IMG/VR virus record: IMGVR_UViG_3300021400_000219
Location: 1-57,969 of that record
DNA: 57,969 nucleotides
Reading direction: 5' to 3' (one strand)
Source of the DNA: a virus
Position 1 is the first letter of the stretch. The number at the start of each line of letters is the position of its first letter. Positions 1-41,450 of this stretch are shown piece by piece. Both the position numbers and the translations under genes were made by a program. The notes below the pieces were generated by a model that saw only the letters and a list, made by a program, of their open reading frames with translations, was not told where the DNA came from and did no database searches.

Positions 1-3000
1 TATAGTTTTAAAATAAAAAATAATAATCATTATGTTTATAATAGTAATTCAGGATAGTTAACTCGGTTATATTTAGATTCATATAATGGTAATAATTTTG
101 ATAATAATTATATATTTAGATATGATGATAATATTTTATTAAATATTATAAATGATAACAACTCTGATTTAACAAATGTAAGTAATATATATTATAATTA
201 TGAGCCTATCACTTCAGATACTTATGTAAGAATAACTTCTGCTCAACTAAATTTTGGAGATTCTAATTTTAGAACAATAATGAAAAATTAGGATTTAAAA
301 AATAATTTATATAGAGATTTATTTTCAATGTCTTATGATGTTTCTCTTACTGTAAATTATATGTTAAAATATGATGCTAGCGCAGGTCCTAGATATGGTA
401 CAATAATTACTCCTTTAGGAACAGAATATTTATGGGATTGGTTAATAGATGAAGAGAATTATTTAAATTTTTATGATTATAATGGTAATCAAAATATTTT
501 TCCTGGAACGAAAATAAAGACAGAAGATTTAATTTTTTATAGTATTACTGGATATAATAATTATCATAATTAGTTTGATTATGTAATATAGAATATTTAT
601 TATTATTTATTATATATACGTTGTATTAATAATTTTAGTTAGAATAGAAATGATTTTAATATTTTATCTGAACAATCATTAATAATTTTAGAAGATAATG
701 ACGATGAAGATATTTATAAAAATATATTAAATGAATTCACTATTTTAGATAAAAATAGAAATTCAACATCATTATCATTTGTAAGTAATTATATTTTAAA
801 TAATTTTTATTATAAAAATAATACTCGTCATACCGAGTCTGATGATTTATTTTATTATGATTTGATTACTCCCACTATACCCAATGAATACTATCAAATT
901 AGTTATGCCTTTAGTGAAAATTATTAGTTTGCTTTATTATATTATATATTATTAAAAGAAAGAGAATTTACTGAAACAGATTTATTTACTAGTCTGTTTA
1001 ATAATAGCACATTATTTTGGGATTATTTTTATTTAAATAATAAAATTAATGGTTCTGGATCTGTAATAGATTATTTATTAGATGAAAATAAATAGCACGA
1101 TATTAAAGGTATTGATTTAGAAAAAGATGGAGAACAATTTGATTATGTATTAGCTAGTGCGTCTCCTCCTTATTGTTTAAATAATGATGATTCACCTTCA
1201 ATTACTCATTATTTAGCAATAAATATTTAGAATATTTTAAAAACAAGTTTTCAAAAATTTTCTACTGTTAATGAATCTGAAGCTACTAAAGAAGCAAGAG
1301 ATAAATATTAGAAAAATAATATTTATTCATTTTTAAGTAATTTTTATAATAATTTAGGATCAAATATTAAAATTAAATCGACTTATGATACTACGTCTTC
1401 TACTCATTCAACTTTATATAGAGATTTAGCTTAGTTTTTATTAACAAATACATATTTAGAATAGAGTCATATATTAGATTATACTAATAGTGAAATTAAA
1501 ACTTTATTATATAATTTAATTATTAATCATCAAGATTTTTTAACTATTAGTTCTACTGATAATTTAGATAATATTTTTAAATTAAAATTTTTCCTTAATG
1601 CTAATAAGAAAAAATTATATAATATTCAATATGAAATTAATTCTATATTATCTCCTGCGGATTTATTTAATTTTTTAAAAACTTATTAGACATATTTTAA
1701 TAATTATAATTATGATTATATTAAATTAAATTTAATTACATCTTTAAATATATCAGAATTTAAAGAAGAAATTGCAAAATATTTTACAATACCAGATGCT
1801 GTAAATTCATTATCTAATATATTTACTAATTTAATAGCAGAAGCAAAAAATATTACAGATAAATTTCATGTTAAAATGAAGCAAAAAACAGATGTTACAT
1901 ATTCATATAAAGTATATTTTAATAATAAAGTTACTGATTTAACAGATTATATAAATAAAAATGAATATATAAGTTTTAATACTTTATATAATTTATATTT
2001 AACTGAATTTAAAATTAATAATATTTTTCAAACTAGTAATGAAGCTGATACATTTATAAAAGATTCTTTAAAAGAATCTAAAACTTTTAATTATTATAAT
2101 AAAAATAATTAGAAAGCTTTTATAAATGTAGATGGTCATTATATTGTTGATCCTTATGATAAATGGCATGAAGGAGAAATTTATTATGAACCTGTATAGA
2201 TTATTTAGAAATCTAGTTGTGTTCAACCTTTAAGATATTTAATTTCATCTACAAATACAGATGCTGGCTCTAAATATCCAAATAATTTAATTGAAATTTA
2301 TCCAGATTCTAATTTAACAACATCTTAGTTAATGAATTCATTATCTATTTTAAAAGTTACTATTTCTAATTTTGGAGATTATGATTTAATAATTAATGAG
2401 CCTATTCCTTTGCGCAATAATACTGTGGTTAGAGATGAATCTGGTTAGATATTATCAGAATATCGTTATATAGATGGAGCTACTTATGTACGTTATTCTA
2501 GTGGTGGCACAATGGATTATGATAATACTCCATATGAACTTTATAAACGAACATATGATGAAGTTTCTAAAGAAATTTTAATAACATAGGTAGAAACTAC
2601 TAATACAAATTTAAAATTATTGATTCCTAGTGAATCACAAACTATTTAGACTGATAATACAAATTTTATACCTAGAATTGAAAATAAAGTTTTAAAACCC
2701 GCTCCAGTATACATTCCTAATTTAGGCGCTTATGGTGTATAGTTTATTTAGGATGGGCAAGTAGTTTGGACTTAGCCTATAAATGTTTTTGAAGATAATT
2801 ATCCATCAAGTACATTAAATGCTTGGAATGGTAGAGATATTAAAACAGATGATGAAACTGGAACAATCCTTACATCAGCAATCTCTGCAGGCAAGAAAGA
2901 AAGAGATAATACTTTTACTGGTATTATGATGGGAGATTGGTCAAGAACTGATACAGATTCTTTTATTACTAAATAGACTGGATTATATGGCTTTTATCAT

Positions 3001-3915
3001 GGGTCAATGTCATATGCTTTTACTGATGATGGAAGAGGATTCATAGGTCGAGATGGTAGGGGTCGTATTTATTTTGATGGTAATAATTCTACTATTTATT
3101 CTAGTGAATGGAAAGGTAATCAACAATTAGGAATGTTTTTAGACGTAGATGATGGTGTTATAAAATTACATGCATAGAATGTAGCTTTAGATACAGGTCA
3201 TCAAATGCAATATATTACTTTAAGTGCTAAAGAGTCTAAATATCCATTGGCTATTGGATATGATGAGTATCCTAGTAAAAGAACTTTTAGAGTAAATTGG
3301 GATGGAAAAACATTTTTAGAAGATGCAGAAGTTCATGGTAAAATTGAAGCAGAAGAAGGCTATCTTAAAAATTTACAAGTTTTAGGCACTTTAGATTGTA
3401 GTTCAGGACTTATTAAAGGTGGAACTATTGAAGGTGGAACTATTAATGGTGGAACTATTAATGGTACAAGCATAAATGGTTCTTTATTAACTGGTGCTTA
3501 TGGTAATATTGGTGGTTGGGCTATTTTAGATTCTGGTATTTTTAGTAAAGATGGTCATGTTATGTTATATAATAGTGATTTAGGGATGGTTGCAGATAAA
3601 TTAACTATTAAAACTGCTGTAATAAATAATTGGGATGAATTAGCTAAAAATAAAAATGCGAAACCTGCTGTAAGTAATAATACTGTAATAGGAGAAATAG
3701 GTTTAATTACAGGCGATAATGAAACTAAAACTACTAATTTATTAGGAATAAAATCAATAACAGCTGAAGGTATAGCGATAGAAAGTGGGAAAAATATTCG
3801 TTTAAGCGGTATTGGATCTGGAAACTTAGCTAATGCTATTTATTTATAGGCTAAAGAGATAACATTTAAATGTGATGCTAAAAATCAAATTGGTATTTAT
3901 GCACGTTTTGCATAA
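1..3915 (+). CDS. Large virion structural protein, 5' partial (over 1300 codons in window; many internal TAG read as sense). The C-terminal part has GGTIEGGTINGGTING beta-helix-like repeats and a fibre/spike-like tail
   Basis: Frame 1 is open from nt 1 to the TAA at 3913-3915 with only TAG interruptions. Track ORFs 328, 1876 and 3205 are all in this frame. The translation is protein-like throughout (e.g. ...GSMSYAFTDDGRGFIGRDGRGRIYFDG..., GGTIEGGTINGGTING...). No start codon is resolvable inside the window. Confidence 0.55.
3418..3462 (+). repeat. Three tandem 15-nt units, GGTGGAACTATTRAW, encoding GGTIE/GGTIN repeats inside the first ORF
   Basis: Direct reading of ggtggaactattgaaggtggaactattaatggtggaactattaatggt. 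Confidence 0.6.
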
Positions 3916-3945
3916 TTAAAAGGGATATAAAGGAGATTAAAAATT

Positions 3946-4119
3946 ATGATAATTACAAAAGAACAATTAGAACAATTAGCTCGTATTTATAATACTTTAT
4001 TAAATGTAGGTACTCGTGGTGAAGATACTTTAATAATGGCAGATTGTTTACGAGCTTTAGAATAGGTGATTAAACAAATTAATACGGCTACAACTGAAAA
4101 AGATAATGTTGAAATTGTT
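3946..4119 (+). CDS. Small hypothetical protein (about 57 aa, MIITKEQLEQLARIYN...)
   Basis: AAAGGAG ribosome-binding site 8 nt upstream of the ATG. The frame ends at TAA and has one internal TAG. Confidence 0.4.
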
Positions 4120-4134
4120 GAGGGGTAATTAAAA

Positions 4135-7284: not shown

Positions 7285-7299
7285 AGGAGCTATTAATTT

Positions 7300-10200
7300 A
7301 TGAAAAGTTTTGAAAAATTTAATAAAGAATTTAATAGACTGGCTCTTTTAGATGAAGAATTTTTAATTGCATTATAGGCTTAGAAAGAAAGAGAGTTATA
7401 TGCAAGAGTTTCTGCTTTAAATGAAGAAGAATTACCAATAGATTATTTAGAAGGTCGTATTTCAGGTGGTAGTATTAATATTGATGGAACTTCTGCTATT
7501 CGTAGAACTTGTAGTTTAACTTTAGTTACTGATGAATTAGATATTAATGATGTTTATTGGGGAATAAAAACTAAAGTAAAAATAGAAGTAGGTATGAAAA
7601 ATAATTTAAAAAAAGAGTATGGAGTAGATGGTACATAGTATCCAGATATTATTTGGTTTCCTTAGGGAGTTTATATTTTAACAAGTTTTAATACTTCTAT
7701 TTAGCTTAATGGTTATTCAATTAGTTTATAGGGTAAAGATAAAATGGCAATGCTTAATGGTGATTTAGGTGGATAGTTATTTGCTTCAGTAGACTTTGGA
7801 TCAGAAGAAATTGAAACAAGAACATTCGCGCAAGTTTCTTTATCAAATACAAATTCAGATGTATTAATTTCTGGTAATTATTATATAGAGGGTGTAGTTG
7901 ATGAAAATTTTCCAGAAGAAGTTTTTATTACAAATCCACCTAGTGATATGAGATATTCTTTTGAAGAATATATTACTAATGAATCAATAGAAATTCCTGA
8001 CAATGCAGATGCAGAGACATATTCTGCAAATACATTAGGTTTATATTATAAACATAATGGATTTTATAAATTAATTAAAAATAAAAATTTAAATACACCT
8101 AATTTAAAAAAATATCAAATATATTAGAAAGTTGTACATCCTAGTTAGATGTTTGAATATATAGGTGAAGGAGCAACAAATCAAATTATTAATGGTGCAG
8201 ATTCATTAGAATATGAAAAAGGTAAATATTATTATAATCCAGAAGATAAAGATGATTCAACTGCTACATCTTTTGATAATCAAGCAGGCGTATATGTTAT
8301 TGATTATGGTACTACTGCTTCAACAGGCCGATCTTATTGGAAATTAAAAACTATTTATAGATTAGAATTACATACTACTAAAACAAAAATTCCTTTAGAA
8401 AAAATAATTCGAGAAGCAGTTCATGCATATGCATTAGAACCTTATCATAATATTATAATTAATGATTTAGAAAATTATGGACTAGAATAGTTAACATATA
8501 AAGGTGATAAAGATTTAGTAGCTATTTAGAGAATTTCTGATGGAGAATTTTCTAATTTAGGATTTAAAGATAAAATTCATTATTGGGTAAAACTTAGTGA
8601 CACAGAAGCAAAATAGTTAAATAAAGATACTATTATTAATGATAAAGGAAAAGAAGAAATTTTTACAGTTGATCATTTAATTAAGAAAACTAATTTAATT
8701 AATGGCTCTGAACCTTTTAAATTTTCACAATTAAGTTCTTTATTAACAGAAATTCCAACGCAAGTTTATGCACAAGATCCAAGATTAAATGATATTTCTA
8801 CTTATTATGAAAAAACAGAGAATGATGAATATATTTTAACTTCAGATACTTCATTGTAGATTAATAAAACTTATTATACTCGTACAAAAAAAGGTAATAA
8901 ATATATTTATACACCAATATCTAATCCCGCTTTTTATTTAGCAATTATTTCTTATGGAGATGATATTGGATATCGCATTACTGATTTAACTTATACCGGT
9001 GATTTAATTACTAATTTGGGCGATTCTTTAACATCAATGTTAGATAAAATTAAAGATATGCTGGGAGAATTTGAATATTTTTATGATTTAAATGGACGTT
9101 TTGTTTTTTAGCAAAAAAAAAATTATGTTAATATTTCTTGGACTTAGTTAAAAAATAATGAAGATGAAGATTATGTAACTTATGCTAATGATACTACAAA
9201 ATTTTCTTTTAATTTTGAAGGCAATAAATTAATTACGGCTATTTCAAATTCTCCTTAGTTAAGTTCAGTTAGAAATGATTTTAGTGTATGGGGTAAAAGA
9301 AAAACAATTTCAGGAGAAGAATATCCTATTCATGCACGATATGCCATTGACAAAAAGCCTAAAGAATATATGTCTTTTAATGGTATATTATATTATACTG
9401 AAGAAGCAAGAAAAAATCCTTCTCCATATTATAAAGAATTAATAAGAGATGATATAGGATTACCTACAGCTTATCAAAAAAATAATAGTATTATACCTAG
9501 TTTTTTAAAAAAAGAAGATGGCTCAAGTGATTGGTGGGAATTAATGGATTGGGCAAATTATTACCAATCAAAAACAGGAGTTTATCCTACTTATACTTTA
9601 ATGCAATATTGTTCAGAAGGATTTAATGGTTCTTTAACAATAGGAGATAGGATTTATGATCTTACTCATTTTGCAAGAATTATTGTAGATTTAGACACTG
9701 GTGATAGCGCAGATACGATAAATGATCCAGAGCAATGGGTTCCTTATACACGACCTTTAAAATTAGGAGTTAATACAACTTTAACTTGGAATCCTTTTTA
9801 GCATGGATATCGTGGTTGCGGCCATACTTATGCTTAGTACAGATTATGGTATGATATGAATCCCGCTTTGCGTTCATTTATTTATAAACCGCAAATGCCT
9901 AATTCTTAGGTTATTGATATAGATGGTGGTTCACTTAATAACGATGAATTATCAGAAAAAACTGCTTTAATGGTTGATTGGCGAGAATTAATTTATCGTA
10001 TGGCAATTGATTATTTTGATGCTTAGGGATGTTCTGAAGAAGAACCTATTTTTAATAATAAACAAGAGATGGTAATAAATAAACCAGATTATTTTCTTAC
10101 TAAAGTTGCTGAATTAAACCCATATTATTATCCTACTGGATATACTGGATATGAACAATATTATACTGATATGGAAGGATTTTGGAGATAGTTATATAAT

Positions 10201-11064
10201 CCTGATTATGTACCTCAATTAAAATGGACTCCTGGTCAATATGAAACAGAAATTGTTACTAGACCTGGTTCAGTTTATAAATATAAAACATAGGCTTGGC
10301 ATGCTGAAAAACCAGATGGTTTTAATATTGAATATTATTTTTGTCCAAGTGAAAATATTGTTATCAATAAATAGGAAAGAGAATATTTTGATAATGATAA
10401 TGGTATTTATAAAAATGATACAGATTTAAAAAATGAATATTATCGTTATTTAATTAAAAATCAAAATATAGATGAAAATTATCATTTACGATATTGGAGT
10501 ACAAAAGTAGTGGAAGCTCCAGAAACATTAAATTTTTGGATTGATTTTTTAGATGATGTTAATGAGGTTGCTCAATTTTCCATTCCAATGATAGGAGATA
10601 GATCTATTACAATAAATGATGAAAAAATAAAAGCTATAGCTTATAAAGATATTCCGGGATTAATTGTTGTTTCACGCGATTAGAATAATCAAGAAAAAGG
10701 TAATGCTGAAAAAGCTATGTGGCAACAAGCTGAAGGGGCATTAATTGATTAGATTAAAGCTCAAAGTGGATATACATTTGTATGGTTACCTGTGGGTATG
10801 TCTTAGTTTTTTACTATTAGTTATAGAAGTTTATCAGCTAAAAATAAAATTGAATAGTTATTATATTAGTATAGTTATTGTCCAGAAAATATTACTATTA
10901 CCGCTTTACCTATATATCATTTAGAACCTAATACTCGTATTTATGTTAGAGACGACACAACAAAAATTAATGGTGAATATATCGTGAGCAAAATAACATT
11001 ACCATTAGATCATAAAGGAACGATGTCAATTTAGGCAACTAAGGCGCCAGAACGAATTATTTAA
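7300..11064 (+). CDS. Large virion structural protein (about 1254 codons) with many internal TAG codons
   Basis: AAAGGAG ribosome-binding site plus ATG at 7300. Frame 1 continues through track ORFs 8149 and 9370 to the TAA at 11062-11064. The off-frame ORF 10241 is low-complexity antisense-like junk. Confidence 0.6.
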
Positions 11065-11091
11065 TTAATAAGAAAGGATGGGATATTTTAA

Positions 11092-11421: not shown

Positions 11422-11426
11422 AATAA

Positions 11427-14375
11427 ATGGGATTTTATGGAGATCATTTAGATAGAGGAAAAGTAGCATTTCAATTTGATAGAATTTTTACTAATCGTAA
11501 ATCTATGGATTAGATGGCAGCCGCAGGTAATGATGGAGTATTTGCTGGAAGATTTGTTTTAGTTCAATACGATCCAGATGGTAAATTTTTTGAAGGTGAT
11601 GTAACTACTGGTTATTACAGTGATGGTGTTATTTATGCTGATTCAGATTTATTAAATCCTTATACATATAAAACACTTACTAAAGTTACTTCACCTTCTA
11701 TTTCAAATTGGGAATCTTATTATCAAAAAATTGGTAATTATTATTTTAAATTGCCTGGTGAAACTTATTTTAATAATGAAAATGATTATTATATAGCAAA
11801 TATTGATTCAAATAATTCTGTATATTTAAATTAGCTAGTTCGTATTTATGATAAAGATTTTGGATTTACTCAAACTTATTATAAATGTACAGGTGGAATT
11901 TCTGGCGCAGGATCAATAGCTACTTGGACATTAGTTAATCATGATAATACAGATTCTACTTATTTACGAAATTATAATATAGATAAGATTGCATATGGTA
12001 ATGATTTTGCTAGAAGAGGTTATGATGCAACAGTTTGGGAAAAAGTTTATAGTTAGGGATAGGGAAAATTTTTATTAATTGCATATTTAAATACAATATT
12101 TCCAGCTTTTGAATTATATGCAAATCCCCCTTCTGAATAGCCTGCAGTTCCATATATAGATGCTTTAAGCTCTGATGCCTTATATCGTATTCATGTGCCA
12201 AGTATGTTTGGTTTTCGTATTAAAGAAAAAGAAACTACTTCTTCTATTCCTTCAGATTAGGCAATAGATTAGATTTATTATAATTATGATAAAAAAAATA
12301 ATATTTTATCAACTTCAACTCGACACATTGATGCAGATATTTATTTTAATAAAGATGGTATGACACCTTCAATTCGTCGTTATGATAATACTGTTTTAAA
12401 TGAAATTTTAATTAAACCAACAGGAGCAAGTGGTAAAACTTATTTTGATAATAATGGTAATGAAATTAAAACAGATATGTATGAATTATCTATTCATTTA
12501 CCTATGATAGGCAATATAATATCTAATTTTTATGATTTAATATATACGGAAGAAAGGCATTTAGATACAGTTTGGTATGATCCTACTAATGCATTTCGAA
12601 ATAATGGAAATCCTGCTTTAAATTATAAAACATTTAATCCAAATTCTGTAGCAGGATTAATAAATACTTTTCAAAATAGATTAGGACAAATTATAAAAGA
12701 ATCATCTAGCCCTTTAACTAATGATTCAGCCGCAACATTAAATCAAAATTATATATATTCTTATGAAGATAAGTTTTATAGGGCGGGATATGATTATGAA
12801 TATATAGAAGTCCCAGAATATAGCTTAGTAGAAAATTTAACTGCCAGTAACTATGAACCTGGTAAATATTATACTAAAACAACAACAAATGGTAATGATG
12901 TATATAATATAGCAAATGGTAATTTTAATTCTTATACTAATATTCCTTTATATAGAAAAAATATTAATTATACCCCAGTAACGGTTTCACAAGAAGAATA
13001 TTTACCAAATACTTATTATGTTAAAAATAATAAAACTAATAAATTTGTTCCTGCAACAGAGACTTACTCATATTATCCTCATGGGGATTTAGGCTCTTAG
13101 TTTTATTAGAAAAATATTTCTGTTTTTAAATTTGTAAAAACAGAACTAGAAGGATATGTTAGTGGATAGTATTTTTATTTAGATAAAGATCATAATTATA
13201 TTAAAGATACTCAAGAAATAAGTCCAACTTTTAAAAGTATTCCTTATTATCATATTACTTCAGCAAATGAAAAAGGTCCAAAAACATTTAATAAAGTATT
13301 TGCTGCAAATACATTTTATTATTTAGAAGATAATTGTTATTGTTTAGAGTCTAAATCAATGCCTAATCCAGATATAGAGCATTATTATGAAATTACTCCA
13401 ACTAGACTCGCTACTAAAGCTTTAATTTATTAGCCTAATCAATATTATTATTATCCTGATGGACATAATTCTTTAGGTAATCCTATAGGAAAACCTAAAT
13501 TAGCAGAAGAAAATTCAGTGGTTGAAGGACATAAACCATATTACTATATTCCATTATAGGAAGATGTAACTTATGTTGAAGTTGATGGAAAAATTGTTGT
13601 AGGACATGCATTAGATGTAGCAAAATAGAAAATTGTGAATGTTTTTTCACCAACGCAAAGTTTAAATGATATTTATATTTTTTCAAATAATAAATATATT
13701 CCAGTATCATCTTTAAAAACTACTGATATTGAATATAATTATGAAGTTTTAACAGTTGTAGAAGCGACTAAATTTTTTGTACCAGGTTATTATTATAGAA
13801 AAGATCCTGAAACAGGAAATTATAATTTATAGATGACTTGGAGTGGAAGTTCTTCTACTCAATATATTGAATTAATAAATGTTGTTCCTGTTTCTAAGCC
13901 TTTTTATGAAGGCGGTAAATATTATTGGTATACAGGAACAATTTATGATATAGATTTTAATTCGAGTATGACTGTAGGTCGTGAATATTTTATAAATACA
14001 TCTTTATATGTGTTAAATGATGAATCTGAACGTTGGCCATATGGATTTGAATGGCGAGAATAGGCTGTATTTGTTCCAGCTTCTGTAACTTTAGCGACTA
14101 GAAAAGAAATACCCAGAATATTTGAAATTGAAGGAATTAATAATGATAAATCATCTATAAATGGTACAATTTTAACTCTTAATAAATTAATTGCTAATAA
14201 TGATGTTGATATTCGAGATAATACAACTTTAACAGGCGCCATTAATAATACACGAGATCTATTGCAATCAATTCATTCTAATTTAATTCCTCGTCGTATT
14301 TTATATATAAATGATTTTGGTTAGATTGCAACAAGTCCTTATTCTATTGATTAGTTAGCAACTCTATTACATTAA
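11427..14375 (+). CDS. Large virion structural protein (about 982 codons; MGFYGDHLDRGKVAFQFDRIF...)
   Basis: TAGGAGGAT ribosome-binding site plus ATG at 11427. Frame 0 continues through track ORFs 11514, 12360, 13635 and 13833 to the TAA at 14373-14375. Confidence 0.6.
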
Positions 14376-14458
14376 TTACTTAGGACAAATAAAGATAATG
14401 TATTTTTTTTCTTTTTAAAGTTTATTGAAAAGCTATTACAGAAAGGGGGAAATTAAAA

Positions 14459-15451: not shown

Positions 15452-15473
15452 AAAGAAAGGAGTCTGAAAATAA

Positions 15474-18203: not shown

Positions 18204-18240
18204 AATTTAGAATGGGAAGATTTTAATTAAAAAATAATTT

Positions 18241-28556: not shown

Positions 28557-28580
28557 TTATTTTTCAAATATTTGCTTTAA

Positions 28581-28756: not shown

Positions 28757-28804
28757 TTTTAAAGATTTTATGAATAATTCTAAAATAGAAAGGGGTGCTG
28801 AAGA

Positions 28805-31800
28805 TTGGCGCTCTTTAAAATATCTAAAGGGGATTCTAAAAAATTATTACCAGGTAATAATTAGAATCCAAATGTAAAATATGCTAAAGAAGGTTTTGCA
28901 TATTTTACAACTGATGATGGAAAATTTTATGTAGATATAGCAGGTGATGGTTTAACTACGCCCGCAATTATAAGAGATAAAGAATCAGATGGAAATCGAG
29001 TTCCTTTAAATGCATATTAGGCAGATTTTGCTGGAGAAGCGGAATTTGCTAATTTATCTAAAATTAGTTCACGAATTGCTTTTGGAACCTGTACAACCAA
29101 TGGAAATGTAATCAATAAAATTATTAGTATTGATACTAACGAATTATAGACATTAACTAGCGGATCAATGATAGCTATTTACTTTTTAAATGGTAATACA
29201 GCTGTTAATCCAAAATTAGAAATTGATTCAATATAGTATCCAATTTATTATAATTTTACTACTCCAATTGGAGATAGTATTCATTCTTCTTGGGAATCAG
29301 GTTCAATTAAAATTTTTACTTTTATGAAAGGAACAGATTCTAGTCCAGAAGATCGTTTTATTGTTACTAATCCTAATTTTGGTTCTAATCCTATTACAGA
29401 TAAAACTACTGTTTTAGCTAGCAATATGAAAATTTATCAAACTCATAATATTGAAGAATCAGACTTACAAGAAAGTGGTTGGATTAGATTTGCTTCATTA
29501 GATACTAACACTAGTAATTAGATAGGTCAAAAAATTTTTGATTTTAATATTTTCAGAACTTATTCCAGAGGAATACCTGAAACTTATAGTATTAGAGTTA
29601 TTGCAGGATGGTCTAATTGTACTATATTATAGTTAGGCGGAAACGTTGGAACACAAAGAATTACTCAATTTCGTGTATGTAAAGATAGTACGGAAAAAAA
29701 GATTTATTTTGAGCTATATTTATCAATGGATACTCCAACAAATAATAAAATCTATATAAGAACAATTAACTATACTAATAATACTCAATTAACATTTTTA
29801 AATGAAGCCGAAATTAAATCTGATTCAGAATTAGCTACTTGGACTTTACCTTTAAAACAAGCTAGTTTAATTTCAAATGCATCTATAATGCTTTCTTCAA
29901 CTTCTCGAGGATTATTTTTAACAGATTCAACTGAAAAATTATATGGAGCAATTTATAATAATGCTTCTAGTTTATGGGTTGGCGCAACTGCAACAAATGA
30001 AAATATTCATACTGGTAGTTTATGTTTTCATGCAGGTAAGGATACAAATGGTATTATAAATCGTTCAGCATTTTTAGCTGTAGGTAATAATGATACTGCA
30101 ACCACTGCTACAAATTACGTAATTGCTTATGGCTCAGGTGGTGGTCCATCGTAGCCAATATATGTTGATACTTATGGAAAAGTATAGGGTATTACAGGAG
30201 CTATTGCTAATGATACAACTGGTAATGCTGCAACTGCTACTGCGGCAAATATAACATCAACTGATAATGCTATTGTACGATTTGATGGTACTCAAGGTAA
30301 GTTTTAGAATAGTCAAGCTTGGGTTAATGATAATGGAGGTATTACTTCAAATAGCGCTATTACAGTAGGCGCAGGTTATTTTATAATTAAACCCTTTTCT
30401 TCTGAATATGATACAACAGGCACTCATGATGGAATTAAATTTTATTTTAATCATGATAGAGAAAATTATAATCCAGATACATTAATTACTTATTATTCTT
30501 TATAGGCTACTAATTTTTATGGAGTTTTAAAAGGAAATGCAGATACAGCTACAGCTTTGTCTTCTACTGGAACTACTGCTTAGTTTTGGCGTGGAGATAA
30601 TAGTTGGAGCAGTATTTTATCTGGAGCAGGAGCAAGAATTACTTTTACAGACACAGTAAATAATCGAACTATGTGGATTGGTCATCAGTCTTCACAAGAG
30701 TGGATGGGTTTATATGAAAGCACTTCTAATAATACTAAAGTATTAATTGCTCGTAATACGACTTCAAATAAAATTGGTATTGGCACGGCAACTCCAGATG
30801 CAGATTATAATATTACTTTATAGAGTTCAGTTTATTCAACTGATTTTATAACTGCTAAAGGTTTATATTTATATGGTTCAATAGGTTCAGATAAAACTAC
30901 TCGACAAATTACAAGTGATGATTTAAAAAATATTTATTTTAAAATCAATGGTAATATTTCATTAGTAGTTAAAGATGATTTGGTTGGTCCTGGATAGTCT
31001 TATTCTAATCAAATTAATTTAGGTGCTACTGAGCGACTGTGGAAAAAAGCATTTATAAATCATTATTATTTACCAAGACCTACAAATGGAGAAAGCACTG
31101 ATTGGAATACTCGCATTGCAACTACTGAAAAAAATAGTTTTACTATTGAAGAATTCGGAACATCTACACTTAATAAACCAACTAATCATTGGTATTATGG
31201 TTTTATTGGGCGTGGCTCAGATCAAGATTATTTATTACAAATTGGTTTTGGAGAAACTACTACAAGAGTAGTTTATAGAGCTAAAATTTCTAATAACTGG
31301 TCTGGCATGGCATTATATGATATCCCTTCTACTGGGCCAGTTGCTATTGGCTCTGGGGTAAAGCCTATTTATTTAGATAGTAATGGATTTTTACAAGCTT
31401 TTGCTTCTACAATAGGCACTACAACTAAACCAATTTGGATAGATGCAGGAACTATTAAAGCTGGAAGTTATGAATTAAAAGCGACTGTAGACAATGGTAC
31501 ACAACATTATTTAACTATGTATACTGCTGATGGAAGAACTATTGGCCCTGCAAGTAGTAGAACTTCAACCGTTTTATTATCTTCTACAGTAGCTGATACT
31601 TTGAAATTAACATCAACAGCAGATGCTAATTATTTAACATACGTAAGCAGTAAAGGTACTTGGAAAACTGGTATGGGCACCAATTCCAATGAATATTGGA
31701 TCTATTCTAATGATTTATCTAATTGGCGTGTTGCTATAAATAATTCTAATTTCCATTTACGTTCTTCAAGTTATTAGAAAAATACTACACCTTCTTCAAA

Positions 31801-34800
31801 TGTTGCTGGGGCAGGTATTTATACAAGAGATATTGACGATAACTATATTTGGGTATTACGAGGCTATAAAAATACTTCTAATACAATGGGTGCTTAGTTA
31901 TATACTTATGGACATAGCACAAATGATACTGGCACAAGCACTTTTTCAATTTATAGAACATCTACCCCTGATACTTATATAAATTGGACTGGTGGAAAAA
32001 TTGGTAATAGTATTTATCCTTGGGCAAATGCAACTTATAATATTGGTTCAAATGATTTAGCTTGGAATCAATTACATTTAACTTATGATTCTTCATCTGC
32101 TAGAAATAAAGGTATTCGTTTTATGAATGCTGGAACTTTAGTAGGTAATATAGGTGCAACAGCACAAGGATTAGGTATTTATGGTAATGGTCATTTATAT
32201 TTAAGACCTTCTTTAACTGAAACACAAGGTATGGAAATTACTTCTACTGCAGTTCAACCAGCAACAAATCATGATATTAATTTAGGAACAACTTCGTTAA
32301 GATGGAATTAGATTCATGCTAAATCTTATTATATTGAAGATACTCGCAATGAAGATTTAACTGCAGCTACAAGTGATAAAGCTATAAGATTTTTCTTTAG
32401 TAATAATAATATGCCAAACACTCAATGGTGGTCTGGTATTCATGTTCGAGGTTGGAATGGTGGATATTCATCATGGGAATTAGTAGGTCCAGCTGGTAAT
32501 GTTGATCAAAGAACTACTCCATTATATATAAAAACAAGTAATATTAATACTGATTGGGGCGAATGGCGTCCAATTTTAGATAGTTATAATGGTGTTATGC
32601 GTTTTCATTATGGAGGCACTGGAACTACAACAAAAATATTAATTACTATAAATAATACAAACTCTTGGATGGCATCTTTTACTTTAAGATTATATTAGGG
32701 ATATCAAGCTACAGATTTATAGATTAGCGGTTATAATTATAATAATACAGATACTCCTTGGTCTTCACCTCAAGCTATTGTATTAGGTTCAACTGCATAC
32801 GATGGCCCATTAGTATATTTTGGATATACAGATACATAGAAATTATGGGTAGCTGTAGATGGCGCTAGGTATACAGGCGTTGATGTTTTTGGCATTACTA
32901 ATGGTTATACTCAAATCAATTTAAAAGATTTTTGTACTATTACTAATGTTTCTACTTTACCTGGAACACTTCAAAAAACAGTAAGAGCTTATAGTCGTTT
33001 AACTCATAATGTTGTAAGCGATACTGGTGATATTACTTTACATAATTAGCCAGGAACTTTTGCTTTTTCAGGAAATGGAGATCCTTGGAGTGGAAATGAT
33101 TGGGTTGGATTTTAGGTAGGAAATAATTTAGATAAATTTTAGATTGTTAGAGTTAATTCAAATAATTTACTATTCCGTTAGAATGATAGTGGAGGAGTTA
33201 ATACTTCTTGGGGAACTTGGGAAAAAATATTAACAGATGTAAATACTTCATGGGTAGCTTGGACTCCAGGAACTACTGCAGGACCTTAGGCTAATTTATC
33301 ATTAAGTGGAACTAATATTCAAAGTGCCGCGATTCCTTCTGCTAGCACAACAGCAAGTGGTATTGTAACTACTGGAGAATAGTCTTTTACAGGTAAAAAA
33401 ACCTTTAATTGGTTGCGCGTTGTTAATAATTCATCTAATAATGCTGATGATGCACTTTTTTATATTGAAAGTAAAAATAGTAATGATTGGGCTTAGAAAA
33501 TTCTCTTAGATACTTTTAACTATGGTTTATATATTCAAGGAACCGGAACTTCATTGTTAAAAGTTGGAACAAATAATAATTTTACTGTTAATTCTACAAC
33601 TGCAGCTTTTGGATAGTAGGCAAATCCTATGACAATAACAATGCATGGACGATTAGTTATAGATAGAACCGATATAACCTATACAGCAGGAGATGAGGGT
33701 GAATAGGGACAATCTATCCCTCTTATTAACATAAAATATAAAAATACTGGCACGGGTGTTTATGATCAAAATATACTTAATGCCATAAAAACAACAGAAA
33801 CTGGTGCCACTGTAGATGCTACAACGATAGCGCTAACTTCAGGTGGTGGTAGTCTGATTTTAGCTGCCGGAGAGCATATGAACGGATTATTAACAAAGAA
33901 TGGTCCTTTTAAATATGGAAGTGAAACATTAATTTTATCTTCAGATTAGAATGTTGAAATGATGACTGGTTGTCATAACTCAAATGGAACTTATACAGCT
34001 CGCACAAGAGTTGGTTCGATCGGAATATAGATGCATTTTCCTTATAATAATTTTAATAGAAACCTTCAACCTAGCGCAGCGGTAGAAAGAGGAATGTTTT
34101 TATATGGTGCTAATATTATAACAGAAACACCTACAGTAACCAGTGATGAAAATCAATTTGTAGCTGGAACTTATTATCGCATAGAAAAAACATCAGGTAA
34201 TCGTATTTACTATGCAGCTACTATGTATAATACTAATAATGATTTTAAATATTTAAGTTTAAAAATGCCATATAATCAAACTTCATCATTTTTAATGTGG
34301 ACAGATGGATATGTTGGTAACCGCATAATACCCTGGGCTAATAATAATTATGAATTAGGATCTTCAGATTACAAATGGAAAGAAGTGCATGCAACAACAT
34401 TCTACGGCACTTTATCTGGGACAGCAACTACTGCGAATAATTTAAAAACGACACTTATGACCAATGCTTCAACACCGGTTTTCGTTTTAGGAGCCACTGG
34501 AACGTCTGCGAGTACTTCTCAGGCTGTATATAAGGCATATCGTACTTCAACTGCTCAAGTATATTTTAGAGGAGATACTGGTGTCTTAATGGGTGCAGCT
34601 TGGAATGACTATGCAGAATATCGTCAAGCAAAAAATAATATAGAAATTGCTCCTGGCAGAGTAGTAAAAGAAGTTGGAGATGAAACATTAGAATTAGTGA
34701 CTGAAAGATTACAACGAGGATGTTCAATAGTTTCTAATACTTTTGGTATTAGCATTGGTGAAAGTGAAACTAATAAATTGCCATTAGCAGTATCTGGACG

Positions 34801-35023
34801 AGTGTTAGCATATCCATACGAAGATAAAGAAGAATTTAAAAATCATATTGGTTGGCCAGTTTGCTCTGGTCCTAATGGAACAGTAAGCATTATGACTGAA
34901 GAAGAAGAAGAAAAATATTCAAGCCGAATCATTGGCACCATATCCTCTGTTCCAAGTTATGAAGTATGGCACGGGGGGGCTGATGTGGTTGTTGATGGGC
35001 GTGTTTGGATAAAAGTGAGGTGA
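28805..35023 (+). CDS. Giant tail-fibre or receptor-binding protein (about 2072 codons; N-terminus MALFKISKGDSKKLLPGNNQNPNVKYAKEGFAYFTTDDGKFYVDIAGDG...)
   Basis: GAAAGGGGTG ribosome-binding site. A frame-2 TGA sits at 28799-28801, then a TTG start at 28805. Track ORFs 29324, 29726, 31307, 32123, 32411 and 34031 are all in frame 2 and joined only by TAG. The terminal TGA is at 35021-35023. Confidence 0.55.
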
Positions 35024-35027
35024 AAGT

Positions 35028-36493
35028 ATGGCTTTAAAAGAAACAAAAGCAACAATTGATGGAACTGGGACTGATAGTATAAAATTTGGTCAGAGTGCTG
35101 TTGCCTCAGGTGCCTATTCTATTGCAATAGGGTATGGGACAAGTGCTACTGCTGAAGAGGCTGCGGCACTAGGGAAGTACGCCGTAGCTAAATTAGAGGC
35201 AACCGCTGTAGGAGCTTATGCTAATGCTCTCGGCAATTACTCAGTAGCATTAGGATTTCTGTCTAATGCACCTGCTGATCTTTCGACTGCGGTAGGGACT
35301 TATGCTACTGCTTCTAACGAGGAGTCTACTGCATTAGGACATTGTGCAGAAGCTGCCGGTAATTAGGCTACTACATTAGGGTATTTTGCTAATGCCTCAA
35401 AAGACGGTGCTACTGCATTAGGAGCTTATGCAAATGCTACTGGAATAAATTCAACAGCAGCAGGATTTAAAGCAGTGGCTTCTGGCACTACTGCAATTGC
35501 ATTAGGGCCAGAAACTAACGCTTCTGCTTCTTCGGCAACTGCTTTAGGACAGTATGCAAAGGCTTCTAAGAGTTGTGCTTTGGCGATAGGGTATGGCGCC
35601 AAAGCATCAGGAGTTTATGCTTTTGCCATAGGAACCTATGAATCAACAGCTTCTGCAAATTATACAACAGCCATAGATGGATATGCTACAGCAGATAGAG
35701 CAATAGCTGTTGGTGGAAACGCGGTTGGAGCTAATTCATTAGCCTTAGGATTTGCTTCAAAAGCTTCTGGCATTAATTCAATAGCCATAGGAAAAGAAGC
35801 AAATACAGCACAAAATTATTCTACAGCTTTAGGCTATAAAGCAAATATAAATACTTCTCATAGTGTTAATTGTATGATGCTTGGAGGATCTACTTAGGTT
35901 AATATTTATTATTATGGAACACTACGTTCACAATCAGATATTAATGATAAAATTGATGTTTCAGAAATTCCAAATGGAGCAACTGAATTATTTAAATAGC
36001 TAACTCCAATAGAATATTATTATAATTATAGGGATGAATATATTGAACCAGAAGAATGGTTAGAAGAAGAAATTGAAATAAAAGATGAGAATGGAAATAT
36101 TGTATATGATGAAGAAGGTAATTCTTTAAAAGATATTATTAGAACTTGTAATTTATCAAAAGAAGAATAGGAAAAACGTAAAAAATATGGTCAAGGAACA
36201 TATGATAAAGAAGCTTGGTAGCAAGGATTAAAAAAACATACAGATCCTCAAGTAGGTTTATCGGCATAGGAATTATTACAAGCATTAGAAAATATTTATG
36301 GAAATTCTCGAGCTTTTCCATTAGTAGGAGATAATTTTGATAATTTTGAATTAGAAGAAGGAGAAGAAATTCCTGAAGATATTGAACATAGATATAATAT
36401 TGCTTATATAAATTTAATTCCATTTTTAATTAAATCAATTAAAGAATTAGATGCTCGTATTACTGAGCTTGAACGAGAAAAAGGAGAAAATTA
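35028..36493 (+). CDS. Tail-fibre protein (about 488 aa) with an Ala/Gly-rich head-repeat region and a C-terminal intramolecular-chaperone-like domain (peptidase S74-like)
   Basis: GAGGTGA ribosome-binding site plus ATG at 35028. Frame 0 runs through track ORF 35475 to a TAA. The repeats AxGxxAxAxGxxSxA resemble a trimeric fibre or adhesin head. The C-terminus (...RSQSDINDKI...HTDPQVGLSAQELLQALENIY...IKELDARITELEREKGEN) resembles the endosialidase-chaperone domain by recall. Confidence 0.65.
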
Positions 36494-36499
36494 AATATT

Positions 36500-37516
36500 A
36501 TGAAATATAATGATGTATTATTAACTTTTGTTATTCCAAGTTATAAAGAAACAGAAGAACAAATGTTTCCATTATTATCAAGTATTTCTAATTAGTTAGG
36601 AATTGATAATAATAAAATAGAAATAATTATTGTTCGAGATGGAACAACTGAAGTAAATTTAGATATTTTTAAAATTTTATATTTAAATATTAAACAAATT
36701 TTAATGAAAGAGAATAAAGGTCCAGGAGTTGCACGTCAAGTAGGCTTAGATGCAGCACAAGGTAAATATGTAATGTTTTGTGATGCTGATGATATGATTC
36801 ACAATTCAGGTATTATTGGTGCAATGATTCAAGAAATGGAATAGTAGCAATGGGATATTTTAAAAACACCTTGGTTAGAAGAGTGCCTAGATTCAAATAC
36901 TAATTAGTTAATTTATATTAATCATGAAATAGAAAATACTTGGATGCATGGAAAAATGTTTAAAAAATCATTTTTAGATAAAAATAATATTAGATTTCAT
37001 CCAGATTTAAGAGTGCATGAAGATACTTATTTTCTTTCTATAGCGACTGATTATACTGATAAAATAGGTTATCTAAATATTACATCTTATGTTTGGCGTT
37101 GGGGTAGAGATAGTATTACTCGTCATGATGAAGGAATTTATACTTATGAAGCAACACCCGAATTTATTAGGGCTTGTTGTTTGGCGCATGAGATTACAGA
37201 AAAAGTAGATATATCAAAAATGGAATATAAAACAATTTAGTTAATAATATATCAATATTTTAGTTTACATTCTTTAAATTGGATACAAGAAAATAAAAAA
37301 GAATATAGAGAATTAGCAGAGCAGGCTTTAATTCAATATATGAAGCCTTATTGGAAATATTGGGAAAAAGCTTCTCCAGAAACTATTGCAAAAATTTATA
37401 ATGAAGAACGTAATAAAAATTTTAATACTCAAATCGAATTTGAAACCCTTGGAGATTGGCTTATTAGATTAGGATTTATAAATCCACAAGGAGATAATGA
37501 AAATGGACTACAATGA
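36500..37516 (+). CDS. Family-2 glycosyltransferase (GT-A fold; DxD motif ...FCDADDMIH...)
   Basis: AAAAGGAG ribosome-binding site plus ATG at 36500. Frame 2 runs through track ORF 36944 to the TGA at 37514-37516. The N-terminus LLTFVIPSYKETEE...IIIVRDGTTE and the CDADD motif are classic GT2 features. Confidence 0.7.
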
Positions 37517-37904
37517 ATTAATTACATCTATTTTTCAAGTAGTTATTATTCCTTGTTTAGGAATATTAACTGGATTTTTTGTAAAATGGATTAATGCTAA
37601 AATTAATGAATTAGCAATTAAAACAAAAAATGAAAAAGAAGAAAAATATTTATATATGTTAAAAGACACTATTACTTCAGCTGTAATAGCAGTAAATCAA
37701 ACATATGTAGATAGTTTAAAATAGCAAGGCACATTTGATATAGAGGCTCAAGGCAAAGCATTTACTATGGTTTATAATTAGATACTTTTATTCCTTGGTG
37801 ATGAAGGTAAAAAATATTTAACTGAAATTGTAGGAGATGTAAATAGTTATTTAACTATGGAAATTGAAGCTGCAGTAAATCAAAATAAACTTAAAAAAGG
37901 ATAA
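37497..37904 (+). CDS. Holin-like protein with a single N-terminal transmembrane helix (about 135 aa)
   Basis: Track ORF 37497 (MKMDYNELITSIFQVVIIPCLGILTGFFVKWI...) is extended through two TAG codons to the TAA at 37902-37904. Its size and topology match holins of Gram-positive phages. Confidence 0.55.
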
Positions 37905-37908
37905 AAAA

Positions 37909-39018: not shown

Positions 39019-39031
39019 GGAGAACTATAAT

Positions 39032-39285: not shown

Positions 39286-39300
39286 AAGGAGGAAACAGAT

Positions 39301-40098
39301 ATGTTTAATAATAACAACGGCTATAGTTTATCAGATATTGCAGCCGCTACTGGAAATGGCAATGATGGTTTCTTTGGTGGCAACAATGGCTGGTGGGTAA
39401 TCCTATTATTCTTATTTGCTTTTGGCGGCTGGGGAAACAACGGCTGGAACAATGGAAATAATGGTACCGCTAATGACGTTAGTTATAATTTTGACATTCA
39501 TGATTTAGATGATGGTATTCGTGGCTTAACTGCAAGCACTGCTAATGGTTTTTATAATACTAATAACAGTATGCTTACTGGTTTTGCTAATACTCAATCT
39601 CAACTTTGTAATACAGGTTTTGATGTAATTCAAGCTATTAATCAAAATACTTTAGCTGGTTTACAAAACACTAATGCTTTAACAGCATAGTTAGCACAAC
39701 ATTCTGCAGACGAACAACTTTGTTGCTGCCGCACTCAGAATCAAATTGATAGCAATTTTGCTACTTTAAATTATAATTTAGCTACTCAAGAATGCGATAC
39801 TCGTAGAGCTGCTCAAGACATTGGTAGAGAGATTATTGATAATCAAAACAATAATCATCGTCAAATAATGGACTTTATGGTTCAAAGTCAAATGTCTTCT
39901 TTACTTGCTGAAAATCAAGCTCTTAAAGGTCAAATTTCTCAAAGTGAACAAAATGCTTATCTTATTAATGCTTTAAGACCTTCAGCAGAACCTGCTTACT
40001 TAGTTGCCAATCCTTATACTGGAATTTATGGCACTTATGGCTATAATGCTATGTTCGGTGGTCCTCTCAGTAATGGTTTTGGGCCTGGCCCATTTTGA
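39301..40098 (+). CDS. Asn/Gly-rich membrane protein (about 265 aa; transmembrane segment WWVILLFLFAFGGWG)
   Basis: AAAGGAGG ribosome-binding site plus ATG at 39301. Frame 1 joins track ORFs 39301 and 39868 across one TAG and ends at TGA. Confidence 0.55.
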
Positions 40099-40117
40099 TT
40101 GAGGGGGTGACTAAATA

Positions 40118-40539
40118 ATGGAAATAACCGCAAATGCTATTCAAACAGTACAACCTAATTAGGCTGTTTTATTTACATCTACAGCTATTCCAGGTAATTT
40201 ATCTATGATACATCGTGAAGGTAGCGGATTGGTTGGCTTACGCGGGTTGACTAATGGTCAACGTCGTGCAAGATTCCTAGTTCGTTTCGGAGGAAATATT
40301 GCTGTTCCTGCCGAACAAACTGTTGGTCCAATCACTTTAGCAATCGCCATTAATGGTGAAGCCGTTTAGACTTCAAGTATGATTTCCACTCCTGCAGCTG
40401 TAGATAGTTATAATAATGTTAATGCTGCATTACATGTTGATGTACCTATTGGATGTTGTAATGAAATTAGTGTTAAAAACATTAGCACTATTCCAATAAA
40501 TGTTCAAAATGCTAATCTGATTGTAGAGAGGGTGGCATA
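40118..40539 (+). CDS. Small beta-rich protein (about 140 aa) reminiscent of BclA-C-terminal/TNF-like exosporium proteins
   Basis: GAGGGGGTGA ribosome-binding site plus ATG. Two TAG codons are internal. The TAA overlaps the next start (TAATG). The family resemblance is from memory and is weak. Confidence 0.45.
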
Positions 40540-41151
40540 ATGGAACGTTTAATTCAAATGAAAGAATAGCTAGTATCTGCTATTCAAGGACAAATGACCA
40601 ATTTAAAAGATACTAATACAAAAGAACTTGGCGAAGCCATTGATATGGTTAAAGATTTATCTGAAGCTATTTATTATTGCACTGTTACAAAAGCAATGGA
40701 AGAACATTCAGAGAATCAAAAAATGCCAATGAGTGAAAATAACAATTATTATTATACAGAAAAATATTATCCTTATAGAGATATGGATAGAGATTCTGGT
40801 AAAATGTATTATCCTGATCATATGAATTACTATGGCGGTAATAGCGGTGGAGGTAATTCTTCTTCAAGTTCATCTTCTGAAATGAGCGGTGGACAAAGTT
40901 CTAACTATTATACTGAACGTAATTATCCAACTATGCGCGATTCAAGAGAAGGTCGCAGTCCAATGAGACGTAGAATGTATATGGAATCTAAAGCGGCTCA
41001 TCAAGATGATAAAGCTATGAATGATTTAGAAAATTATATGCGTGATTTAAATCAAGATATTATGGAAATGATTAGTCAAGCATCTCCAGAAGAAAAACAA
41101 ATGCTTCAAAAGAAAATAAACGTTTTAGCTACTAAGCTTCAAAATGTTTGA
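40540..41151 (+). CDS. Tyr/Ser-rich low-complexity protein (about 203 aa) with a C-terminal amphipathic helix
   Basis: An ATG 18 codons upstream of track ORF 40594 in the same frame is joined across one TAG. It ends at a TGA that overlaps the next ATG (ATGTTTGA). Confidence 0.5.
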
Positions 41152-41450
41152 AATAAATCATATTAATTGGGATATTAAATTAGTTTCTTTTAATCATCCA
41201 AAAGTGCGGCGAAGTGATGGTTCATTTGCACTTGGAGCTTGTGATGACACCACTAAAACAATTTATATTAGTGAAGATGTTCCAAACTATAAAATTAAAA
41301 AAGTGTTATGTCATGAAATTACTCATGCCGCAATGTTTAGTTATAATGTAAATCTTAATATAGATTAGGAAGAATTAATCGCAGATTTAATAGCAACATA
41401 TGGTGAAGAAATTATAGCCATTACAAATAAAATCTTTGCTAAAATAGCTT
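41144..41450 (+). CDS. Small putative zinc metallopeptidase with an HExxH motif (...KKVLCHEITHAAM...; ImmA/IrrE- or SprT-like), about 102 aa
   Basis: Track ORF 41144 is extended across one TAG to a TAA. Confidence 0.45.

Follow-up and report, generated by a model that had tools for sequence, protein, structure and literature searches.

Phages that read the TAG stop codon as glutamine (Gln) have been described in several lineages. Borges et al. (bioRxiv 10.1101/2021.08.26.457843) reported phages of low guanine-plus-cytosine (GC) content whose suppressor tRNAs lie in standard-code regions, in which recoding affects the structural and lysis genes and, 'variably', the replication genes, and whose close relatives differ in code; the idea that such recoding works as a timing switch was already proposed there. 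Babkin et al. 2023 (PMC10607447) described phAss-1, of the proposed Phassvirus, within a 'Caudoviricetes code 15 clade' in which virion genes and some DNA-processing genes are recoded. In crAss-like code-15 phages (Yutin et al. 2021, PMC7886860; Peters et al. 2022, PMC9523058), TAG as Gln is concentrated in late genes and accompanied by a suppressor tRNA; Peters et al. are reported to have validated the coding by metaproteomics. Here we analyze the in-frame TAG codons of a viral DNA stretch of 57,969 nucleotides, positions 1 to 57,969 of IMG/VR record IMGVR_UViG_3300021400_000219 (hereafter the window), and of adjoining sequence. The data point to an undescribed phage in which genes free of TAG and a putative amber-suppressor tRNA share one promoter motif.

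The window is AT-rich, with a GC content of 0.19-0.38 that is mostly about 0.28, and under translation table 11 it yields short open reading frames (ORFs) only. Reading through TAG raises the sequence in ORFs of at least 100 amino acids from 31.5 kb to 63.2 kb, a doubling that confirms the TAG recoding of the window assumed in an earlier note on this DNA. The longest ORFs then reach 2268, 2074, 1311 and 1305 codons, and genes of 2253, 2072 and 1310 amino acids are regained. Recoding of TGA or TAA in this phage was ruled out; TGA read-through brings no comparable gain in coverage. Annotation under table 11 shreds the genome into fragments, and code 15 is therefore required to annotate it. When only TAA and TGA are counted as stops, 41 closely packed genes can be called in the window, arranged in a + strand block (1-41452) and a - strand block (41489-57967).

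The window is the reverse complement of the final 58 kb of ENA ERZ28612966 scaffold_111 (174,221 bp), with 100% identity over the 11,055 nucleotides compared. Its TAG-free 78-amino-acid protein is encoded by two public metagenome contigs, this one and another of 171,166 bp. The phage genome is about 174 kb long at 29% GC. We examined a 96.8-kb composite with 94 genes, consisting of the window and of stretches of the same contig to its right, among them segments L002, L027 and L028; record positions 1-73,037 lie outside it. Within the window, ARAGORN found no tRNA and a search of Rfam no family.

Alignment with relatives indicates what the in-frame TAG codons stand for. Opposite 25 of them, L016, an 80%-identical and also TAG-recoded relative, has 10 CAA, 2 CAG, 4 TAG and 9 other codons, so that 16 of the 25 positions face CAA, CAG or TAG, and Q shares first place among the residues opposite TAG in a 50%-identical relative. 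These alignments show that TAG means glutamine in this phage. The positions turn over fast, only 4 of the 25 being common to the 80%-identical relative. Across all 94 genes TAG positions are spread uniformly along genes, and C follows an in-frame TAG 18% of the time, compared with 7.4% after CAA (2.4-fold, p 6e-7), with G depleted directly 3' of the codon. In E. coli, termination is weakest when C occupies position +4. The real stops of these genes are TAA in 72 and TGA in 22.

The amber suppressor supE of E. coli is a tRNA-Gln(CUA) that arose as a chromosomal mutant allele; its read-through is incomplete and context-dependent, so that protein yield drops multiplicatively as UAG codons are added. 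About 41 kb to the right of the window, the phage contig carries a cluster of six tRNAs (Pro-UGG, Gln-UUG, CUA, Leu-UAA, Lys-UUU and Arg-UCU; predicted by ARAGORN and all confirmed by Rfam). The amber-suppressor tRNA(CUA), at L028 2124-2198, scores 57 bits against the Rfam tRNA family and has a standard cloverleaf with a C1-U72 mismatch, G2-C71, G3-C70, G10, U35, A37 and G73, features that we take to match the tRNA-Gln identity elements of E. coli GlnRS/supE. It is identical to the phage's own tRNA-Gln(UUG) at 51/75 positions, lower than the 60/75 shared with tRNA-Leu, and descent from tRNA-Gln is therefore not shown. ARAGORN labels this tRNA 'Pyl' by default; a pyrrolysine reading is ruled out by the standard cloverleaf and by the alignment of TAG with Gln.

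Approximately 100 nucleotides upstream of tRNA(CUA) stands a sigma-70-like promoter (TTGAAA, 17 nucleotides, TG-TATAAT) that ranks second among such sites in the region and contains the exact 16-mer TATAATATATATAGAA. The 16-mer occurs seven times in the composite, on one strand throughout, and every copy sits 20-110 nucleotides upstream of a start codon or of the tRNA; L027 holds four exact copies, against 0.01 expected by chance. It heads operons with 19 consecutive genes (3,591 codons) that contain 0 TAG and 107 other Gln codons. Two near variants precede the RNase H/gyrase operon and DnaE. The 41-kb + strand block holds no copy, and the motif is conserved in relatives. The phage-supplied suppressor on which the earlier note's timing idea relied has thus been located, on the same 174,221-bp contig but outside the window, and its promoter is sigma-70-like. 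Taken together, these data show that the predicted suppressor tRNA is preceded by the putative promoter motif common to the TAG-free operons. In the same region (L028 1-3300), a GTGTCTTGT(A/T)T leader stands in front of several tRNAs, and the promoters have ACAGCAAT about 25-35 nucleotides further downstream; both may be processing or start-site signals.

Across the composite, TAG use separates three tiers of genes:

16-mer-headed blocks (the tRNA region and the 19 genes from MVP_shoulder to metallophosphoesterase): 1 TAG in 4,599 codons, with 71 CAA and 58 CAG
Replication and nucleotide-metabolism genes: 77 TAG in 9,825 codons, with 298 CAA and 37 CAG
Presumed virion block: 213 TAG in 13,317 codons, with 284 CAA and 13 CAG

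The ratio TAG/(TAG+CAG) is 0.02 in the early blocks, 0.68 in the replication tier and 0.94 in the virion tier, and TAG behaves as a replacement for CAG. Expressed per 1000 codons, TAG density is 16.0 in the presumed virion block, whose virion annotation is weak, 7.8 in replication genes and 0.2 in early genes. Per gene, the TAG share of Gln codons is near-bimodal, at either 0-0.13 or 0.23-0.70. By their codon usage the genes are shown to fall into two apparent classes, one TAG-avoiding (TAG 0-10% of Gln-type codons, CAG retained) and one TAG-permissive (30-70%, CAG almost absent). TAG is absent from 42 of the 94 genes, including the 19-gene run and the ORFs around the tRNA cluster, and from 14 of the 36 genes in the replication tier, including the GyrA part, ligase, YorF, AAA_24, dut and the kinase. 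Full agreement with the standard code is thus confined to the early block outside the window and to the single genes gyrase, ligase, YorF, AAA_24, dut and kinase. Two proteins of the TAG-free early blocks (L028 10001-12451 and 3501-5018), an 816-amino-acid major-vault-protein (MVP) shoulder protein and a DUF2828 protein, are odd cargo for a phage, and their genes are unusually rich in GC and CAG (19 and 10 CAG).

This choice of genes recurs in other lineages. Fifteen IMG/VR relatives, with DnaE 51-71% identical, are all TAG-recoded, and the per-gene TAG share tracks that of the orthologues (Spearman 0.71, p 3e-6, n=33, with up to 11 relatives per gene); it shows no such relation to protein conservation (Spearman -0.18, p 0.31). 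Three relatives (L033, L034 and L041) have very few TAG in the same genes. A further relative at about 50% amino acid identity, IMGVR_UViG_3300028797_000126 (L008/L009, 111,855 bp), has instead recoded TGA to tryptophan (Trp), TGA facing Trp at 5 of 10 aligned positions. Its 509-amino-acid gene, GyrB, GyrA, ligase and YorF together hold 0 TGA and 28 TGG, whereas primase, RecJ, DnaB, YorH and others hold 22 TGA and 9 TGG. GyrA and ligase have 0 TAG in every lineage. That the recoded stop is missing from the same genes under either code suggests that purifying selection acts on them. The changes from TGG to TGA and from CAG to TAG are each a synonymous single transition under the respective code, and AT pressure favors both.

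Among GenBank phages a megablast search with 25 kb gave no nucleotide match. MT835469.1 (176 kb), which gives the best tail-protein match, uses the standard code and lacks a suppressor, and the Enterococcus EF1-like phages are among the nearest described, though distant, kin. The names on the relatives' proteins mention metagenome-assembled genomes of Clostridia and Bacilli, and SPbeta-like genes are present; the host is probably a member of the Bacillota, not the Bacteroidota.

Within the window, the earlier note had contrasted + strand virion genes carrying one TAG per 40-50 codons with a far sparser - strand replication block, a 5-10 fold asymmetry. The observation is real but overstated, and the true divide is neither strand nor module. 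The + strand block contains 213 TAG in 13,317 codons (16.0 per 1000) and the - strand genes 42 in 5,459 (7.7 per 1000), a significant difference (Fisher p 3.9e-6; gene-label permutation p 0.0013) that is 2.1-fold; a gap beyond tenfold appears only for selected genes such as DnaE. TAG makes up 0.42 of Gln-type codons (TAG+CAA+CAG) on the + strand and 0.17 on the - strand (p 9e-12). The quoted spacing fits 1-14375 (97 TAG in 4758 codons) but not 15.5 to 37.5 kb, where there is one TAG per 65-130 codons. Individual counts were quoted correctly, namely 25 TAG in the first 1304 codons, 12 in the 558 codons of 23385-25059 (1 per 46.5), 2 in 1310 for DnaE, 1 in 401 for the helicase, and 0 for dut, the dNMP kinase, the '3D' gene and the 78-amino-acid gene. 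The two blocks are equal in GC (0.286 on the + strand, 0.296 on the -) and in out-of-frame TAG (32/20 and 34/17 per 1000), and the strand contrast is therefore a coding-frame effect. Local GC alone, which the earlier note had named as a possible undoing of its claim, does not account for it; GC-adjusted odds ratios are 1.64 for the virion block against the rest (z 4.2) and 0.03 for the early block. The strand asymmetry is a partial view of a wider gene-class structure.

The - strand genes illustrate why:

41971..42552, - strand: dUTPase (dut), assigned from sequence, with orthologues in relatives; 0 TAG
44112..46385, - strand: anaerobic ribonucleotide reductase NrdD; 4 TAG in 757 codons, the first at codon 101
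46446..47045, - strand: guanylate/dNMP kinase (PF00625); 0 TAG
47473..51405, - strand: DnaE-type polymerase (Pfam PHP and DNA_pol3_alpha); 2 TAG in 1310 codons, with 46 CAA and 7 CAG
51427..51442, - strand: variant of the early-promoter 16-mer with two mismatches (TATAATAATTATAGAA) and a TTGATA -35 box, directly upstream of DnaE and, taken alone, not above chance within the window
51462..52667, - strand: RecD-like helicase (Pfam AAA_19, AAA_30, UvrD_C_2); 1 TAG, at codon 11
53077..53682, - strand: 201-amino-acid protein with a signal peptide, the '3D-domain gene' of the earlier note; 0 TAG
53694..55472, - strand: RecJ-like DHH exonuclease (Pfam DHH and RecJ_OB); 13 TAG (22 per 1000), the first at codon 19
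55810..56913, - strand: primase-like protein; 7 TAG (19 per 1000), the first at codon 19
56915..57151, - strand: 78-amino-acid gene; 0 TAG
57167..57967, - strand: 3' part of the DnaB helicase gene, which as a whole has 2 TAG in 514 codons

Far from being uniformly sparse, this block includes two genes, RecJ-like and primase-like, that match tail-gene density, and heterogeneity among replication-class genes is large (chi2 62.3, df 16, p 2e-7). The contrast extends to relatives, in which DnaE has 5 TAG and 412 CAA+CAG across 11 genomes, the RecJ orthologues are likewise TAG-rich, and the primase-like orthologue of the TGA-recoded lineage has 3 TGA. In-frame TAG is present in DnaE, DnaB, primase, helicase, NrdD, NrdG and the RuvC-like gene. 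Because these replication enzymes carry TAG, often very early in the gene, replication itself would depend on suppression. The label of a 3D domain gained no support, the protein at 53077..53682 having no Pfam match, 3D included, at E <= 0.01. In the strain of Logan DRR869082, DnaE (L004 15406-19032) is called as 868 amino acids followed by a GIY-YIG gene, which suggests that a homing endonuclease or an intron has inserted into the polymerase gene.

Two further loci outside the window stand out for their TAG content. The highest density of all is in a 345-amino-acid GIY-YIG gene at L002 3261-4298 (about 62854-63891 in window numbering), which has 16 TAG (46 per 1000) and is flanked by TAG-free genes; the richness is conserved in relatives, with counts of 16/339, 14/346 and 6/330. 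At L027 12547-14966, two adjoining radical-SAM genes with 6 and 11 TAG lie on the strand opposite to the early blocks, between the TAG-free block and a PhoH/GT2/peptidase_C39 operon.

The + strand block consists largely of long, TAG-rich genes:

1..3915, + strand: 5'-truncated giant ORF without a PHROG match, a presumed tail protein from its position only; 25 TAG in 1304 codons, TAG being 57% of Gln-type codons
4135..7284, + strand: presumed distal-tail protein of 1049 amino acids, matching phrog_30026 (unknown function) and, by tblastn, the related phage MT835469; 20 TAG
7300..11064, + strand: tail protein of 1254 amino acids (phrog_1887 'tail protein', E 3.9e-6; phrog_32343, E 1e-32), with homologues in phAss-1 and Enterococcus phages; 29 TAG (23 per 1000)
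11427..18230, + strand: three presumed tail or fiber genes of 982, 320 and 918 amino acids, their function not established by PHROG searches; 17, 7 and 7 TAG
18298..25059, + strand: giant fiber-like protein of 2253 amino acids with a weak LRR_5 match; 31 TAG, 12 of them in the final 558 codons
25388..27676, + strand: 762-amino-acid protein; 9 TAG
28805..35023, + strand: giant fiber-like protein of 2072 amino acids without a family match; 31 TAG
35028..36494, + strand: tail fiber of 488 amino acids with YadA-head repeats (PF05658, E 6e-38), its C-terminus matching tail-fiber PHROGs; 6 TAG
Within 36500..37904, + strand: family-2 glycosyltransferase (PF00535, E 5e-18); 5 TAG
Within 36500..37904, + strand: holin-like membrane protein of 135 amino acids (Phage_holin_6_1, E 0.004, below the curated cut-off); 2 TAG
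39301..41151, + strand: three genes, two of which avoid TAG and are as TAG-poor as DnaE

The two TAG-avoiding genes are 39301-40098, with 1 TAG and 19 CAA+CAG (3 and 101 in seven relatives), and 40540-41151, with 1 TAG and 11 CAA+CAG. Small proteins rich in Q, N, G and Y, without family matches, cluster at 38583-41151; one of them, 38583-39280, has 11 TAG in 226 codons and neighbors the TAG-avoiding 39301-40098. The candidate lysis genes, which are insecurely identified, are not especially TAG-rich (2 TAG in the holin-like gene, 0 in the secreted '3D-like' gene). On the functions of the + strand ORFs, searches of Pfam, PHROGs and PDB sequences gave almost nothing.

Four independent assemblies all end within window 1-2900, the ENA 174-kb contig at window position 1, the ENA 171-kb contig at about 2322 and two JGI (Joint Genome Institute) assemblies at about 1936 and 2847. 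The first 2000 nucleotides have a GC content of 18.5%, and the breaks fall in the N/Y-rich part of the 5'-truncated giant ORF. This stretch could vary between strains or be repetitive, or the breaks could be an artefact of low coverage. Elsewhere, an intergenic element about 100 nucleotides long occurs in three copies, at window 28557-28700, window 52927-53076 and L027 11821-11960, with a GC-rich core (GCACGCACACAC...GGCCGGCCAGGGCC...AAAATCACTTTTCAAAATTTTT) and no Rfam match. The copy at 52927-53076 leads directly into TTGAAT...TATAATATATAATAGA, which resembles a promoter and precedes a TAG-free gene, and a 57-amino-acid ORF with a TTG start at 28600-28773 is probably spurious and actually the element itself.

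Based on these data, we consider it probable, though far from assured, that this phage, with TAG read as Gln, uses suppressor-gated expression in which the TAG-free genes and the suppressor come early and the virion genes last. The sigma-70-like promoter class (TTGAnn, 17 nucleotides, TATAATATATATAGAA) would drive both the TAG-free blocks and the tRNA cluster with its Gln-like suppressor tRNA(CUA). Because the TAG-free genes and the suppressor share host-type promoters, host RNA polymerase and unmodified translation could express both on entry. The suppressor would then build up, be charged with Gln by a host enzyme and out-compete release factor 1 (RF1) at UAG. The full-length yield of a gene would scale as the read-through efficiency raised to the power of its TAG count. 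Most replication enzymes are among the genes with 1-4 TAG, and these would come up first, virion genes with 7-31 TAG only near complete suppression. We infer early transcription, Gln charging, competition with RF1 and the temporal order from sequence features. The earlier note's model of suppressor-gated late genes gains from the tRNA, the promoter motif and the TAG-free operons, but the divide does not run between virion and replication genes.

Several observations weigh against this proposal. The labels 'early' and 'late' derive from gene content, strand and promoter motif, and the virion role of most + strand ORFs derives from weak matches. Since the replication enzymes need suppression, the suppressor would act before DNA replication, which weakens a sharp switch between replication and virion genes. 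Per-codon TAG density in the primase, RecJ and GIY-YIG-like genes is at least that of the tail genes. TAG-free and TAG-rich genes are interleaved within apparent operons, and timing at the level of transcription cannot be distinguished from timing at the level of translation; one such operon, for example, has TAG counts of 0, 0 and 0 (the helix-turn-helix gene, YorF and AAA_24), 4 (YorH), 2 (DnaB), 0 (78 amino acids), 7 (primase), 13 (RecJ) and 0 ('3D'). Over all genes, GC and TAG density are negatively correlated (Spearman -0.47, p 5e-5), and the GC-richest TAG-free genes, MVP_shoulder, DUF2828 and PHA02142, might be recent imports. Finally, no gene for release factor 2 (RF2) or an aminoacyl-tRNA synthetase was seen in the 97 kb examined.

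A stronger form of the proposal, which we regard as possible but doubtful, is that the number of TAG per gene is a tuned, multiplicative translational counter with three tiers, the stop-free tier being under selection and kept across differently recoded sister lineages. If so, the stop-free set would predict a minimal pre-switch proteome of gyrase, NAD-ligase, YorF, AAA_24, MVP-shoulder, DUF2828, phosphoesterases and RNase T, and each of these pre-switch genes would belong to a block that begins with a single conserved promoter class, the one that also drives the suppressor.

It is also conceivable, if on balance unlikely, that the asymmetry is a by-product, the suppressor existing for some other reason, such as disrupting UAG termination in the host or tolerating an AT-driven drift from CAG to TAG. 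TAG would then be neutral wherever the suppressor is present and purged only from genes expressed before it, and its distribution would record expression order. The way TAG stands in for CAG through the three tiers fits such drift, as do the fast turnover of TAG positions, their uniform placement along genes, and the similar density of the tail genes and the primase, RecJ and radical-SAM genes. The few TAG in L033, L034 and L041 would be drift at different stages. This explanation predicts the same sequence pattern as suppressor-gated expression, but the TAG share above 50% of Gln codons in virion genes, in an AT-rich genome in which CAG would be scarce, and the excess of C after TAG hint that drift may not be purely passive.

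Composition, evolutionary rate or gene origin, by which TAG-poor genes such as DnaE, NrdD, gyrase, ligase and dut would be GC-richer, slower-evolving or imported, provides an improbable account. The correlation of TAG density with gene GC speaks for it, the most extreme TAG-free genes have a GC content of 0.39-0.41 with unusually high CAG, and many TAG-poor genes have bacterial homologues. Set against this are the equal GC and out-of-frame TAG of the two blocks, the class effects that hold after GC adjustment, and the many TAG-free genes that are AT-rich phage orphans (GC 0.23-0.30). Slow evolution fares no better, since the TAG share of a gene shows no relation to how similar its protein is to those of relatives. 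Gyrase and ligase are syntenic orthologues in lineages whose protein sequences differ by 40-60%, and they lack TAG in the TAG lineages and TGA in the TGA lineage; they are therefore long-standing residents and not recent imports. These explanations are largely excluded. That the host itself reads UAG as Gln, TAG being an ordinary codon with gene-specific bias and no switch, is very hard to credit given the 19 genes without TAG yet with 107 other Gln codons, the phage's own tRNA(CUA) and sister lineages that use the standard code or recode TGA, and we know of no bacterium with UAG as Gln.

Suppressor-gated expression, as proposed here, draws its interest from what can be identified together in one phage: the suppressor, its promoter class, a wholly stop-free block, and a sister lineage making the same gene choices with another stop codon. 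The TAG-free genes and the 16-mer promoter amount to a prediction, made from sequence alone, of the immediate-early regulon and of suppressor timing, and they offer a clean case for asking whether recoding sets expression timing or only records it.

How does this system compare with those already described? Like supE, the putative suppressor has a Gln-type tRNA body and a CUA anticodon and would compete with RF1; supE, however, is a mutant allele on the bacterial chromosome, whereas the tRNA here is encoded by a phage behind a putative early promoter. With the crAss-like phages, this phage shares TAG as Gln concentrated in late genes (here presumed ones) together with a suppressor tRNA, but the lineage is unrelated, having a DnaE-type polymerase, SPbeta-like YorF, YorH and YonG, and Enterococcus myophage-like homologues. 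phAss-1 and this phage are both large, with TAG as Gln in virion genes (here presumed ones) and some DNA-processing genes and a tRNA-Sup-CTA within a tRNA set; neither shows a dedicated aminoacyl-tRNA synthetase (here in the 97 kb read), and they are linked by homologous tail proteins and by their common kinship to EF1-like genomes of Enterococcus phages. They differ in several respects: a single tail protein matches, with 34% identity across 23% of the protein, the genome is about 174 kb rather than 136 kb, and six tRNAs with one suppressor have been seen here so far, compared with 36 tRNAs and three suppressors. Against the Phassvirus genomes (phAss-1, BK046881 and BK025033) there was no megablast match and one partial tail-protein match; at most, the sequence would place this phage in a wider, divergent phAss-1 group.

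The phages of Borges et al. agree in low GC, in TAG as Gln, in a phage suppressor tRNA within a standard-code region, in the heavy recoding of structural genes (here presumed ones) and the variable recoding of replication genes, in relatives with standard, TAG and TGA codes, and in genome size, their large Firmicutes-associated clades spanning 154-210 kb. Unlike them, this phage shows no 'code-change module' of RF2 and aminoacyl-tRNA synthetase in the 97 kb read, its candidate lysis genes are not the most recoded, and its suppressor is tied to a specific promoter 16-mer common to TAG-free operons. It is thus an undescribed phage showing a clear example of an already published recoding pattern, which it extends rather than changes; what is added is the link between suppressor and promoter class, the complementarity of CAG and TAG, and the parallel with a TGA-recoded lineage.

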